The position numbers and the translations under genes are program-made. From Octopus vulgaris (Eukaryota), in assembly GCA_951406725.2 (NCBI GenBank), contig OX597814.1, forward strand, positions 166,966,001 to 167,030,000: DNA of 64,000 nt, in the 5' to 3' direction. Under the pieces are notes generated by a model. The model worked only from the letters and a program-made list of their open reading frames with translations. It did not search any database and was not told the DNA's origin. Numbering within the stretch: position 1 is the stretch's first letter; the number at the start of each line of letters is the position of its first letter. Positions 1,621 to 53,342 of this stretch are shown piece after piece.

Positions 1621-2753
1621 AAGTACTTTCTTCTCACAACAGAACAAGCAGAAGTCCGGGCTGCTGCTGACACAGCAGTGGTAATAATATCAAAAGCAAC
1701 AAAAATAATAATATCAAACTAACGTTTGGTGAAGATCATGCCATTAGGGCCTTATTAAAAAGATTCTCAGAGGAGGACATGAGCATAAATCCTGTAAATA
1801 ATTGTTCAAATCTTTTAGTGAAGTCTCACAGTAAAGTATTCATTCAAGTACTACCATAATATATGAAGTTCTTTAAAACCAGTAGCCATATTCCACAGTT
1901 TATCTAAACTCCCCATCGAACTACTAGTTTCTTTGAATAACGCGGTTCGCATGGCGATCGAGTTGGGTCGTATGACTCAGAAAGTAAGTCAAACTTGCAA
2001 CACTTCAAGCACAGAAATATCATACCTCTCCTTTCTTTTCTTTTATAGTGTATTTGACTTGTGATATCTTGTTTTCAAACGCAGGATTATTGAACATGGA
2101 TTAATTTTCAGTCTCATAATATTTGGGTATGGATTAATTTTTAAATTCATCTACTATTGTAGAAACCAGTGACACTTGCTAAGAAAGTCAACTGTACTTG
2201 TAAAAGTTAACTGCACTTGCAGAAAAAGTCAGCTTCATTTGTTATAAAAGGCAGTTGCATTTGTGGAAGCCACTTGAGCTTATAGAAACTATATGCCCTT
2301 GTAAAAGGCATGTGCGGTTGATGATATTAGGTGCTCTTGTAGAAGCCAATTGCCCATATAGAAGCCAGCTGCCCATGAAGGAACCAGTTCACCTTGTAGA
2401 AGCTAGCTGCTCTTGTAGAAACCAGACCAAATGTTTTAAATCTCAATATTGTACTTCATTGCTGCAAATGATTTTCAAAATCCTGCAGCAAGGAAGATGA
2501 TTCCTCACTGAACGAATCTCAATTTGCATATGTTCGTGAAACGTTCTCTTTTCTTTGATATTAGAATGTTTCCGGCGAAGAATCCCTAGAAGCAGTGAAG
2601 TAACTTCAAACGTACGTCCTCCGCATTTATTCTCTCTTTTTTTTTTTTCCTTTTTCTTAAACCAGCAAGACTATAGGATGTGTCTGAGTTCATTCTGAAA
2701 TATCTTATAAGTTTTCATAGCCAAAGGAATGAAGTGAGAAAAATATATAAATA

Positions 2754-24713: not shown

Positions 24714-25318
24714 TTGTAAACCTACGATTAAGGATGTTCTGGCCTTGACTATCCTTTCGTTTTGTAAGCCGATGACTACATTTTCACGAAGATAGTGCGT
24801 AATCTGAGGGAATTTGGCTGTTATTTCTACTGAGTCGGGAGACCGAATAAATGTCTCCTTGCCGGATCACGTTTTCAACAACTAAATTGTTTCTGAGCGA
24901 ACAAAGTGGAGGAGAGCTCTACCTCGTTTGCTGGAAATAGTAATCAAATTCTCTCAAATCATGCATTAGCGACTTGAATAAAGACTACATAGATCGATAC
25001 AGTCCTACAAACTTCAAAAATAATGGACGGAACGCCCCTGATATTAGGTCTGCTCAATCAGGACTGAGAAATATGAGCTATTAAAGTAGCAAACCTCTGT
25101 GCTGTCGTTAGAACTGCTAAAAATAGTAAGTAAAGCACCCTCAAATCACAGACTGCAATCATAAGATGCCAATAACTTGGTTCTGAATTAAAGGGATGAG
25201 ATGGCCACAGTGGTATCTCTTTTGATTATATTTAATTTAAAGACTCAATATTCCAAAGAATTTGTCATATCTATCGTCGGTTTTTAAAAAAATGTTTTAA
25301 GGTATATGTATGTGTGTG

Positions 25319-25643
<325 letters not shown>

Positions 25644-25645
<2 letters not shown>

Positions 25646-28600
25646 TTCACTGCGCCGCTATTCACTGCGCCAGAGACTCTGCACAAATAGTGACTGCATC
25701 TTCACGCATCTACCCGGCACTAGACGCACTACTGGCCAAGGCCAAAGCACGCATCCCACAATAACATCAACACCACCAAATAGTAAATCGAAATTCAAAA
25801 CACACACAACTCGGAGTCCCAAAATCTGCCGGTATTCCCAACGTGAGAGAACATGTCTACTGAGTGACTGTCCCTTCACTCATCTTCCAGGGACCCGACG
25901 CACAAACAGAAACGGGGCCTCAAGCCAACACACAAACCTGAATAACAATAAAAATAGAAACACACCATGCTGCAGTAATGCTGGTCCAGTCTTTTCAGGA
26001 AGACACAAAAACAACAACAACAAAAGTGGAAACTACAACCCTATCCAACAGTGCAACCACACCTCCAGCCAAAAACTGCTCCCTAAGCAGGAAAATTCTT
26101 TTTTTAGCCATGTTGAACATGGCAAAAGAGATACACAAAAACATTCTAGCCATCACTCAACACCATCCTATGCTATTACCCCAGTGCACCAATTCCCCAC
26201 ATTGCTGCCACTAACACACACAAAAAATCCAAGCCCCCTGCAACAGTCAAAACCAGCCACTACACTAACCTCCACATTCCTACTCAATGCACAAGGTGTC
26301 AGCCCTTCCATCAATGCACAAAAATGGAAGGTCCAATTCATTGAAGACTGGGTTGGTAACCATTCACACCACATCCCTTTCTTCATTCTCACTGAGACCC
26401 ACCTTGACAACTCCCACTTGGAAGCCGAAGTGAGAGTGAAGAATTTCACAACCATCCGCGCGGATCGTATCGGCAGGAGGAAGGGTGGAACTGCCATTTT
26501 CCTGCATGATTCATTTACGGCAGATGGAAATAGTATATTCTCCAACGGCTACTGTGAATCAGTCACCGTGCACAACAAAGCCAATGATCTGACAGTAATT
26601 GGACTCTATAGGCCGCCCCAAACACCCATACTGTGCTTTAAAGAATGCCTCAACAGCATTAAGTGCTTTATTCAACAGTGCCATTCTAGCAACATACTCA
26701 TGATGGGAGACTTCAATCTACCCTGTGTTGACTGGACTACAAACTGTTTGAAACCAAGCACTCCCGCCTCAACCGCTGACAAAGAAGCAGCAGAGTCACT
26801 TTTCGACTTTACGAATGAGTTTTTCTTGTCCCAACTTGTCCTTGCACCAACAAGACATCAGAACATTTTGGACCTAGTGTTTAGTAACCACACTAACACT
26901 ATACATAACGTTACAGTGGAAAAAACCCTTCTTTCAGACCATGACATGGTTCTCTGTAACATGAAATTCCACCAGCCGAAAGCTAATCCTAGTGACCTTC
27001 CTCCAGCCCACCCATTTGACAACATGGATCTCCATAAAGCCAACTGGGATGCAATCAGGAACGAGCTATCAAATGTTAACTGGTCCTTTACACATACACA
27101 CATCTCCACCAACCATAAAACATCTTGGCAGATCTTTGTAGACACCGTCACAGACATATGTGCAAAACACTCCCCACCAAGACCTGTGAACAAAAAGTGC
27201 AGAATCCCCCAAAACAGAAAAACCATTATCAGAAAAATAAAAAGAACAAACAAAAAAATTAACAAACTAAAGTACTGCCAACAGCAACACACACATTCGA
27301 CGGCTATCGCACTGCTTGAATCCAAAAAATATAACCTCCAACATTGCATGAAGTCCCTCATCAATAACCAAAGATCAGCTGAGGAGAAGTGGGCCATTGA
27401 AAAAATCAAACTCAACCCCAAAGTGTTCTTTTCATTTGCGAGGAAACGCAGGGTCACTGTCTCCACTGTAGGCCCTCTAATTGACGAAACTGGCACTCTC
27501 CAAGATAATGCCAAATCCATGGCCGAGATACTGCAGAAACAATACTGCTCTGTTTTCAGCAATCCTGATATGGCCGATCTGGGCTGTATCAGTGATGTCA
27601 ACCCCCAACACACTATATCGGACATAACGTTTAGTGCCCCTGATGTCTTAGCGGCGATAAACGAAATAAAACACAATTCAGCAGTAGGCCCCGATAGGTT
27701 CCCTGCTTGTGTCCTGAAGGTGTGTCGACACCAACTTGCATCTCCCCTTGCTAATCTGTGGAGAAACTCACTGGATGCTGGCTATATTCCAAAAAACCTT
27801 CTGTCCCAGTCTGTTGTCCCAGTTTTCAAAAAGGGAAACAAGTCCCTTGCAGTGAATTACCGTCCGATCTCACTCACCTCTCATATCATCAAGGTATTTG
27901 AGAGGGTGGTGAGATCTCAAATAACCCAATTTCTGGAAAGCAACAGACGGCTGATCTCCAACCAACATGGGTTCCGTAATGGAAGGGACTGCCTAACGCA
28001 GCTCCTGCATCACTTTGAGGACATTTTGAGAGCTTTGGGAGAGGGCTCCAACACCGATGTCATCTACCTTGATTTCAGTAAGGCCTTCGACAGGGTCGAT
28101 CACAAGATCCTATTGAAAAAACTATCCAACATTGGTGTCTCTGGAAAGTTACTGAAATGGATTAAGTGTTTCCTGACAGACAGATCTCAACATGTTGTAG
28201 TTGAAGGGGTAAAATCAAGCCCAGCCAAAGTCAGTAGTGGCGTTCCGCAAGGCACTGTGCTGGGCCCACTTCTTTTCATCATTTACATTAATGACATTAA
28301 TGACATCATCAAGCACAGCAACATAAAAATCTTTGCAGATGACTCCAAGCTACAGAAGGTCATAAATGAGGCGAGTGACCGGACATGCCTTCAGTCAGAT
28401 CTACTGGCTGTTATCCAATGGGCAGAAAAAAACAATATGCTGCTGAACGAGGATAAATTTGAGCTAATCCACTTTGGAAAAGAGGATGCCCTGAAACTCC
28501 CATACTCCCTTCCTTCAGGTGAAACTCTCACGGCGTCCAACAACATCAGAGACTTGGGAGTAATTGTGGACAACAACGTAAGCTGGGCCACTCATATAAA

Positions 28601-29219
28601 CACCAAAGTTGACATGGCCCGCAGAATGTGTTCCTGGATTCTCAGAACTTTCCAGTCGAGAGATATCCACACCATTATCCTTCTCTTCTCCACTTTTGCC
28701 CGACCCCACCTTGAATACTGTTGTCCACTGTGGTCTCCCCACACAATACAAGGTATCATAAAAGTCGAAGCACCTCAAAGGGCAATCACAAAAAAGATAG
28801 ATGGCATGACAGGCCTCGACTATTGGGGTCGACTAGAAAAGCTAAAACTCTATTCTCTCCAACGTCGTCGTGAGCGCTACATCATCTGCATGATGTGGAA
28901 AATATTCCATCAGCATTGCCCAAATGATGTTGGCATCACCTTTAAGGTACATCCAAGGCTTGGGCCCCGTGCCATCCGCCCAAAACAAAAATCGCACTCT
29001 CATCTCATAACAACAATACGGCACAATTATTTCACCTCAATTGGCCCCGCTCTCTTTAACATTACACCAAAACACATTAAAACAGAAACTGACCCTATAG
29101 GGTTCAAGAAGTCTTTGGACAGATTCCTTCAAGAAATCCCGGATAAACCCCCTACACCCGGATATGTCTCTGTAAACAATAACTCTCTACTTGAGTGGGC
29201 CATAGTGCCCAAATTCTGA
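25644..29219 (+). CDS. LINE ORF1 C-terminal part (tandem CCCH fingers) in frame with endonuclease/reverse transcriptase; no genuine start codon in this copy
   Basis: [20 protein letters not shown]; LNAQG, LTETHL, MGDFN, SDHD (APE); [36 protein letters not shown] (RT). Confidence 0.9.
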
Positions 29220-32547: not shown

Positions 32548-32949
32548 AAGAGAGAAATAAGGATAAACGCAGGTTAATATTATAGTCCCTACGCGCATTT
32601 CCTTAATATGGTTGTTTAGAGAATAGGTGATGCGAAACCAATGAAATAGGTGACGCGAAACCAATGGTAGCCTTCTGATGCGTGCGAGTGTGTGTGTCAG
32701 TCCCCGTTTTCTGTCTTTATTTGTGTATGAGACTATCAGATGTGTGTGTAAGAGCGTGTGTGATGAAGCTGTAGTGTGCGTATGTACTGTGTGTACTTGC
32801 GCGTGTGTAAATGTGTGTATGCGCTTTTGTGTGCATGCGTATTTGTTTGTGTGCGGGTGCGTGTTGTGGATAGAGAGATGATGTGGAATAGAGATTACAA
32901 AAGTAGTAGGCATTGAGAAGCGTAGGTGTGTCATATATTTGCTACTGTA

Positions 32950-33279
32950 GGCTTCGCCCTTTGGTCGAACTTGACGGAGGCTTGACATTTGAGTGTCTGC
33001 CTGTGAGTTCAAATCCGACATAAAGGCGAAGCTGACAGATCTTTTAAGGCGGCGAGCTGGCAGAATCGTTAGCACGCCGGGCGAAATGCGTAGCCGTATT
33101 TCGTCTGCCGTTACGTTCTGAGTTCAAATTCCGCCGAGGTCGACTTTGCCTTTCATCTTTTCGGGGTGGATAAATTAAGTACCAGTTGCGCACTGGAGGG
33201 TCGATGTAATCGACTTAATCCCTTTGTCTGTCTTTGTTTGTCCCCGCTATGTTTAGCCCCTTGTGGGCAATAAAGAAAT
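32950..33279 (+). mobile_element. Composite SINE insertion: extra Pol III-like module (32950-33045) plus standard SINE (33048-33279)
   Basis: Perfect 17-bp TSD ATATATTTGCTACTGTA at 32933-32949 and 33280-33296. Confidence 0.88.
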
Positions 33280-33445
33280 ATATATTTGCTACTGTAAGTA
33301 TGGAGACGGGTAGCACGGGGGACTGTAGTGGAAGTATGTGTGCTAGTGTGACTGAAATAGAAAAAAGGAGTATGTGAGTGAGTGAGTGAGAGAGTGGGTG
33401 AGTGAACAAGTGAGTGAGAGAGTGGGTGAGTGAACAAGTGAGTGA

Positions 33446-49349: not shown

Positions 49350-49752
49350 CATTCTTTTCTACACCAGGCACAAGGCCCAAAATTTTGGGGGAGGGGGGTC
49401 AGTCGATTAAATTGATCCCAGTACGCAAATGGTACTTAATTTATTGACCTCGAAAGGATGAAAGGCAAAGTCAGCCTCAGCAGAATTTAAACTCAGAACG
49501 TAAAGACAGACGAAATACCTATTTCTTTACTACCCACAAGGGGCTAAACACAGAGAGGACAAACAAAGACAGACAAATGGATTAAGTTGATTATATCGAC
49601 CCCAGTGCATAACTGGTACTTATTTAATCGACTCCGAAAGGATGAAAGGCATAGTCAACCTCGGCGGAATTTGAACTCAGAACGTAACGGCAGATAAAAT
49701 ACCGCTAAGCATTTCGTCCGGCGTGCTAACATTTCTGCCACCTTACCGCCTT
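49350..49752 (-). mobile_element. SINE with internally duplicated body
   Basis: Two GAAAGGATGAAAGGC...AACTCAGAACG units; short ATTGGCTA direct repeats flank it. Confidence 0.85.
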
Positions 49753-49963
49753 ATTGGCTAAACAACATTAAGAAACATATGCATCGTCTTATTTCAATAA
49801 GAATTTTTTTTTTTTTTAAATATGAAACAAGAGATGTTATTTATCAATATAGAAAGATGCTGTTTTCACATATTTTCATAAAAAATAATTTATTCATTCA
49901 TTTCTCTAAAAAATTTTTTATAACTTACTTTAGTCGCAATTTCAAAGAATTTAAATCACTTAC

Positions 49964-52875: not shown

Positions 52876-52924
52876 TTTAAAATCAGCAAAACAACAGGTG
52901 TAGTTGTGTAGCAAGATGTTTGCC

Positions 52925-53342
52925 AGTGACGAGCTGGCCAAATCGTTAGCACACCAGGTGAAATGCTTAGTGGTATTTCGCCTGTCTGTACGTTCTGAGT
53001 TCAAATTCCACCGAGGTCGACTTTGCCTTTCATCCTTTCAGGCTCGATTAAATAAGTACCAATTACGTACTGGGGTCGATATAATCAACTTAATCCGTTT
53101 GTCTGTCCTTGTTTGTCCCCTCTGTGTTTAGCCCCTTGTGGGTAGTAAAGAAATAGGTATTTCGCCTGTCTTTACGTTCTGAGTTCAAATTCTGCCGAGG
53201 TCGACTTTGCCTTTCATCTTTTCGGGGTTGATTAAATAAGTACCAGTTACACACTGGGGTCGATATAATCGACTTAATCTGTTTATCTGTCCTTGTTTTG
53301 TCCCCTATGTATGTAGCCCCTTGTGGGTAGTAAAAGAAATAA
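52925..53342 (+). mobile_element. SINE with internally duplicated body
   Basis: Same family and same duplication junction (AAAGAAATAGGTATTTCG) as 49350-49752, opposite strand. Confidence 0.87.

Follow-up and report, generated by a model that had tools for sequence, protein, structure and literature searches.

What is the 96-nt piece of DNA that precedes the SINE at 33,046 of the window (the whole stretch analysed here, 64,000 nt of the Octopus vulgaris genome), and how did the two come to be inserted as one? A sequence-only reading of the locus had described the piece as a vault-RNA-like Pol III module, brought in either with a read-through transcript from an unannotated gene upstream of a SINE or as part of a dimeric SINE subfamily. 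We conclude, with a probability of roughly 80%, that it is a retrocopy from an unnamed family that comprises at least 24 hairpin RNA genes, likely transcribed by Pol III, and that template switching by a LINE reverse transcriptase likely linked it to the SINE. As far as searched, this family is undescribed, and events of the kind that made the chimera are known.

The insertion in the window

The insertion is flanked by a target-site duplication (TSD), ATATATTTGCTACTGTA, whose two copies match at 17 of 17 positions (Table 1), and the SINE head GGCGGCGAGC begins at 33048, 98 nt past the first inserted base, so that both the perfect duplication and the early start of the insert were borne out. 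The second SINE copy named in the earlier reading indeed lacks the additional head: 49753-49521 aligns to insert positions 96-330 only. No other SINE copy of the window carries the 96-nt head, all of them being without the first 95 nt. Octopus SINEs have been catalogued as OK, OR1 and OR2 (PMC4824008, PMC4758252).

The A-box-like element, the B box and a closing CTTTT (33041-33045) are present in the letters as described; the boxes were called with the usual A- and B-box consensus sequences. The predicted fold of the 96-mer is stable (-37.8 kcal/mol, z -4.13; one of 200 shuffles was equally stable). It contains the panhandle of 32950-32958 with 33025-33033 and the inner hairpin that had been noticed; the rod is longer than had been thought, as the A-box and B-box regions pair with each other.

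Two further features of the window concern retroelements. A young LINE lies at 25236-29216 (+ strand), as an unbroken frame of 1327 codons that encodes endonuclease and reverse transcriptase domains. The SINE is often followed by a second, 5'-truncated tandem unit, joined through the tail with a 184-nt period (window 49401-49753 and 52914-53340; L005:1807-1989).

Table 1. Features of the insertion (window coordinates), its retrocopy relatives and the vault RNA genes of the genome
Feature	Position or locus	Strand	Remark
Left TSD, 17 bp	32933..32949	+	identical to 33280-33296
Full-length retrocopy of C9-family RNA, first base to oligo-U end	32950..33045	+	R2 94.6 bits, the copy itself being a row of the R2 training set
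Basal stem 5' arm, partner 33022-33033	32950..32962	+	fold and pair counts
A-box-like element, also paired with B-box region	32962..32973	+	most conserved block of the family
Apical hairpin, variable part of the family	32978..33002	+	folds, alignment and pair counts
B box	33005..33016	+	TTC invariant in 22/22 alignment rows
T4, copied Pol III-type terminator and fusion point	33042..33045	+	T>=4 near here in 23/24 genes
Full-length tRNA-type SINE with the usual leading AA	33046..33279	+	3.9% from the majority of 34 other copies, picked for likeness to this SINE
Right TSD	33280..33296	+	identical to left TSD
SINE-fused retrocopies	window, L002, L004, L005, L066, L067, L070, L103
Solo retrocopies	L003, L069		A-rich tail and duplication
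Vault RNA gene loci	C8:17,838,737-17,900,539 (L016, L017); C8:49,747,988 (L012)		above Rfam cut-off

A cluster of genes on C9 as the source family

The assembly searched comprises 2.8 Gb in 227 contigs. Used as query, the window head found five places, and two exact patterns found five and three retrocopies, all of these missing the C9 cluster. The cluster surfaced with the head of L002, which matched 11 places, two of them 16 kb apart on C9, without SINE and without duplication. A further search added one more place. A model built from five retrocopies (R1) added a dozen matches between these two loci, and a second one, built from seven retrocopies and 15 genes (R2), gave 24 matches of at least 35 bits inside C9:66,330,376-66,381,706 (about 52 kb), nine of which lay outside its training set. 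Five weaker R2 candidates in the cluster showed the same layout on inspection. At E<=0.1, R2 had no match in the 70 kb before or the 30 kb after the cluster, in the vault stretches of C8 or elsewhere in the window; as it was applied to these regions, 24 genes is a lower bound. Nor was a second cluster found with genes of two other subfamilies as queries, 8/8 and 2/2 of their matches falling inside C9. Fifteen pattern matches in metagenome contigs, the best scoring 22.7 bits with R2, were taken as chance.

Sixteen of the 24 genes lie on the + strand and eight on the - strand. They are about 90 nt long and all begin with a purine; an A-box-like block is found in 21 and the core of a B box in 20, the complete B-box consensus being present in 2/24 genes versus 8/10 retrocopies. 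A terminator of at least four T occurs at positions 79-101 in 23 of them. An AT element at -34 to -22 precedes 20/24 genes, none of ten retrocopies and 3% of random positions, by a pattern that was composed after the genes had been inspected; a TATA-like element is similarly placed in the vault and U6 genes of this genome but falls outside this pattern. Paralogues are only about 65-75% alike, yet the upstream element and the terminator are kept. This layout suggests that the C9 genes are likely transcribed by Pol III from a hybrid promoter that would combine the AT element with the internal A and B boxes.

No TSD directly flanks any of the 24 genes, the nearest case being an 11-mer with one mismatch at a distance of 164 nt, and the 100 nt downstream of each gene are free of SINE starts. 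The segment is therefore not confined to a SINE consensus, since independent C9 loci exist; of the origin first proposed, the unannotated Pol III gene is upheld and the read-through mechanism is not (see below). Among the 76 of 548 long frames of the window and the cluster region compared with Pfam there was no host gene for synteny, the matches being to transposon domains, plus two below cut-off. The cluster also contains a fragment of a GIY-YIG (Penelope-type) element (L075:4515-5126, - strand) and one of a mariner transposase (L073:3080-3463, - strand).

The largest subfamily (14 rows, C9:66,348,270-66,375,584) has a distinct upstream element in common. It has no retrocopy outside the cluster (8/8 matches inside), which suggests a younger age or silence in the germ line.

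Retrocopies and the place of the window copy

Ten retrocopy loci were collected, eight fused to a SINE and two solo (Table 1). They extend from the first base of the gene to the terminator, and a TSD adjoins the first base in five of the nine tested. C17 has three of the fused copies (L066, L067 and L103) within 111 kb of each other, two of them 98% alike; they look like DNA duplicates and probably represent one event. In L004 (1587-1740), the head is preceded by two SINE fragments oriented like it, with no duplication found; this is possibly a three-part chimera.

The window copy falls into a clade of six rows (99/99) with the gene C9:66349331, to which it is 85% identical over 86 nt. L005 is 92% identical to the same gene, L070 87% to C9:66331603 and L069 83% to C9:66336162. 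The window, L002 and L003 copies cluster apart, with weak support, and have a different 3' end. The closest gene shares just 85% identity with the window copy, its A and B boxes are altered and its fold is weak (z -1.58), so that the true parent was not found among the C9 genes; the parent paralogue has presumably been lost, has diverged or is unassembled, in a family that would turn over by duplication and loss.

Assembly of four DNA runs on the window head gave single-copy contigs only, the source genes being absent from the output. In a run labelled as another organism, the head was present on two contigs, one of which also had the L003 tail; part of the retrocopy set therefore predates the split from that organism. 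The flank of the window had no cover in this run, a blank that carries no weight.

U6 is known to exist as a free RNA and has left copies of the same kind; the full-length retrocopies can therefore be read as indirect evidence that C9-family RNAs occurred in germ cells on several occasions. C9-family RNA thus appears to have been transcribed in the germ line. Four runs presumed to be RNA yielded no contig on the solo copy L003, a blank to which we give no weight.

The family folds into a rod

The family alignment (22 rows) is nearly gapless, with a mean column identity of 70%. The predicted structure is a rod of 23 pairs over about 84 nt, in which a basal stem is followed by a mismatch, five pairs, a second mismatch and the pairing of the A box with the B box; an apical hairpin of five pairs tops it. 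Paired cells make up 83% of the alignment at these positions, compared with 31-47% in slid controls. Changes on both sides were observed in 17 of 28 pairs (11.8 in shuffled alignments, one of 500 as high) and 45 further pair types are present (none of 500 shuffles had as many), counts to be read with the caveat that the structure was derived from the same, related sequences and that arm-to-arm conversion could mimic covariation. The double changes lie mostly in the basal stem, that is, outside the promoter boxes. Pairs 1-86 and 15-72 are weak, and in one subfamily the apical hairpin adopts another register.

Folded singly, ten of 14 C9 genes reached z<=-2.4 and four did no better than shuffles. 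These folds and the pair counts favoured the rod over a tRNA-like cloverleaf, which was dropped, and ARAGORN called no tRNA gene in the window or in L071-L074.

Possible function of the rod

The RNAs would act by shape and not by sequence, as short mimics of dsRNA: some 23 bp interrupted by two conserved mismatches, with a tip that varies and a 3' tail of about 10 nt. Recognition by shape fits the observation that pairing is kept despite the exchange of basal sequence, while the mismatches are fixed and the tip varies. By analogy with snaR and vtRNA2-1, the nearest working models, we tentatively propose, at somewhat less than even odds, that they bind and tune dsRNA-binding proteins of the NF90/ILF3, PKR, ADAR or Dicer/Exportin-5 type, as decoys or partners.

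Several known systems resemble the family. In adenovirus VA RNA and in the pre-microRNAs that viruses make with Pol III, the type 2 promoter lies within a rod-like RNA, which interacts with dsRNA sensors and Dicer; the C9 family differs from both as a host-encoded multigene cluster, and a search of viral contigs with the family pattern gave no match. The snaR RNAs of great apes are likewise lineage-restricted, fast-evolving and highly structured products of multi-copy, clustered Pol III genes with an intragenic promoter (PMC2094060, PMC7073466). They are rich in testis (PMC2094060, PMC7073466) and bind the dsRNA motifs of NF90 (PMC2094060). Whereas snaR is 117 nt long, Alu-derived and arranged in tandem repeats (PMC2094060, PMC7073466), the C9 genes are about 90 nt long, spaced, on both strands, preceded by an AT element and without a source element that we could find; homology is not claimed. 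Finally, vtRNA2-1/nc886 binds PKR and yields small RNAs (PMC7073466).

A wider proposal, which we put well below even odds, is an octopus-lineage expansion of an entirely new class of Pol III dsRNA mimics, two dozen paralogues with exchanged stem sequences, that might titrate ADAR or innate sensors in an extreme A-to-I editor, the SINE chimeras being a fossil record of the germ-line Pol III transcriptome.

Alternatively, the genes could encode pre-microRNAs made by Pol III, from which Exportin-5 and Dicer would produce guides of about 22 nt out of the basal stem, each paralogue with its own seed. The length of this stem (about 23 bp), its subfamily-specific sequence and its preserved pairing agree with this idea, as do the small RNAs derived from vtRNA2-1 (PMC7073466). 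However, the 3' tail is about 10 nt rather than 2, none of 16 genes matched a microRNA family in Rfam, and no match to the family motif was found in the readable supplements of PMC9699675, which makes microRNA precursors an unlikely identity.

The genome has true vault RNA genes

The C9 family shares with vault RNAs (RF00006) a length of about 100 nt, Pol III-type internal A and B boxes that pair with each other, a panhandle, an oligo-T end, clustered paralogues and a variable centre, and the similar AT-rich upstream element and the presence of a major vault protein (MVP) gene with MVP repeats at C26:12.73 Mb would also suit a strongly diverged second class of vault RNA, bound to TEP1 and the vault particle. 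The model results are against it. Neither Rfam nor ARAGORN named the 96-mer. RF00006 gave no match at E<=10 for the window copy or 16 C9 genes and none at E<=0.5 for four other retrocopies; conversely, R2 did not match 15 vault loci, the C8 vault cluster or intact SINE heads. Rfam had first been run on 30 kb of the C9 cluster, where microsatellite noise was among the matches listed, and the 16 genes were then rescanned singly: no Vault, Y RNA, tRNA or microRNA family was found, and four matches at E<=10 were far below cut-off.

In the genome itself, RF00006 gave 29 matches, 20 of them above the 34-bit cut-off, from 49 scored candidates. Six loci are gene-like, with an upstream TATA-like element and oligo-T: five at C8:17.84-17.90 Mb, where two pairs are a duplicate at a spacing of 55 kb, and one at C8:49.75 Mb. 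The 5' and 3' vault motifs are present in these matches of the genome and absent from the C9-family alignment. Compared with vault RNAs, the C9 RNAs have a longer rod and a structured tip, and their genes number at least 24, versus four vault RNA genes in human. With canonical vault RNAs already in the genome, the vault identity first given to the 96-nt piece fails, and a second vault class is decidedly unlikely. Vault RNA homologues had been reported in two lophotrochozoan lineages (PMC2770079), so that the vault RNA genes found here are a new member and not a first.

Formation of the chimera

The other explanation offered for the fusion was read-through from a gene with a SINE inserted at the terminator, or else origin as a dimeric SINE subfamily. 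In its favour, the window and L002 junctions are of equal length, the two share three common SINE variants and one clade for them was not rejected, and L066, L067 and L103 are near-identical fused copies. The three C17 copies nevertheless look like DNA duplicates, as described above, and the window copy and L002 differ at a linked pair of SINE variants that is found in 8-9 of 34 other copies. The heads of the fused copies belong to at least three clades and their junctions differ.

The SINE bodies of six chimeras differ by 3.5-10.1% from the majority of the 34 comparison copies, which were picked for likeness to the SINE of the window, and have no rare change in common; variants common to at least three chimeric bodies are all frequent elsewhere. 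The tree of SINE bodies is star-like, with no starred branch. An AU test did not reject one clade for the six bodies (p 0.087) or for the window and L002 (p 0.36), which leaves a lost fused source possible for this last pair. We rejected a dimeric SINE with a fused master, given three head clades and no shared rare SINE change, although one clade of SINE bodies was not formally rejected (p 0.087); a dimeric subfamily is also contradicted by the numbers, eight fused copies versus a SINE with 2456 first-look candidates. Read-through as a general mechanism is refuted, as none of the 24 genes has a SINE behind its terminator.

Other small RNAs behave in the same way. Twelve of the 15 vault loci outside the C8:17.8 cluster have a repeat head at most 13 nt downstream, of four kinds, two being this SINE, and ten of the 20 U6 loci examined (from 48 matches) are fused to a repeat head. 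Two U6 loci are fused to this SINE, with a TSD around the whole. The same 5' fusions in U6 and vault RNA make template switching likelier than read-through. This is a stronger argument than that from the SINE bodies: heads of three clades, U6 and vault RNA all occur fused, and none of the source genes is followed by a SINE. Altogether, read-through or a dimeric subfamily is a very unlikely source of the chimera.

We consider instead that template switching likely made it: a LINE reverse transcriptase would switch template from the 5' end of the SINE to the oligo-U end of the small RNA. AA stands ahead of 21 of 26 ordinary SINE starts, which assigns the AA at the junction to the SINE, and the junction is then oligo-U followed by the SINE's own start. 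As in U6/L1-type chimeras, a full-length small RNA lies 5' of a retroelement within a single TSD (PMC6789731, PMC11838501, PMC4476161), and here the source genes lie elsewhere without the SINE, the nearest being a sister paralogue. The octopus chimeras differ from U6/L1 in their 3' partner, which is either a SINE of full length or a short tail element and not a truncated L1, and in their invertebrate host. L1 chimeras with tRNA, 7SL, Y, 7SK and Alu RNAs have been described (PMC11838501); the words 'vault' and 'invertebrate' do not occur in the main text of that paper. Ligation by RtcB has been shown for U6/L1 chimeras (PMC6789731). The reaction depends on a cyclic phosphate and a 5'-OH, termini that are unlikely to exist on a primary Pol III transcript and at the intact 5' end of a SINE.

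The vault retrocopies fused 5' to four different repeats are L011, L013-L015, L018-L025 and L027, and the U6 retrocopies fused 5' to repeats are L104, L108, L109, L111, L117-L121 and L123. Vault RNA (7/15) and U6 (7/20) most often have the same fusion partner, a short element some 60-70 nt long.

Remaining alternatives

A functionless or selfish repeat derived from a tRNA or SINE and expanded locally is highly improbable. Rapid turnover, several decayed members and a near-identical triplet at the left end of the C9 cluster are what such a repeat would leave; however, the compensatory stem changes lie outside the promoter boxes, diverged paralogues without TSDs have kept their upstream element and terminator, R2 misses intact SINE heads and no tRNA was called. 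A mollusc counterpart of the Ro60-binding Y RNA or stem-bulge RNA is scarcely tenable: size, clustering and terminal stem agree, and the role is unfilled in this genome in that RF00019 found nothing among 51 scored of 527,416 candidates, but the C9 family has no Y RNA model match and no conserved single bulged C. Ro60 binding requires a fixed sequence, and in the C9 family the adjoining pair (columns 18-69) switches between C-G and G-C among paralogues.

Significance and other observations

No paper on the C9 RNA family was found in the literature searched, a scope outside which lie most subscription journals, Repbase, SINEBase and MirGeneDB. Vault RNA, tRNA and polymerase III are absent from the main text of PMC9699675, and a text search of PMC12506671 gave nothing relevant. 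New structured Pol III RNA families rarely turn up in animals, and this one, with clear structural constraint, outnumbers vault, Y and most snRNA families in genes. RNA regulation being a central question in cephalopods, 24 loci with predicted ends and promoter offer a defined target for small-RNA work in this group. Collecting the sequence between TSD and SINE head is a general route to small RNAs not yet known.

Some features outside the C9 family were also recorded. Two weak matches to hammerhead ribozymes, of about 25 bits and below cut-off, lie at L005:2438-2489 and 2617-2682 (- strand), and L011:57-168 forms an almost perfect hairpin of about 45 bp that is probably a miniature DNA transposon. 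Five variant U6 genes form a tandem array with a spacing of about 1.1-1.4 kb at C1:139,423,726-139,428,422 (L112-L116), and the variant U6 of this array has its own SINE chimera (L117).
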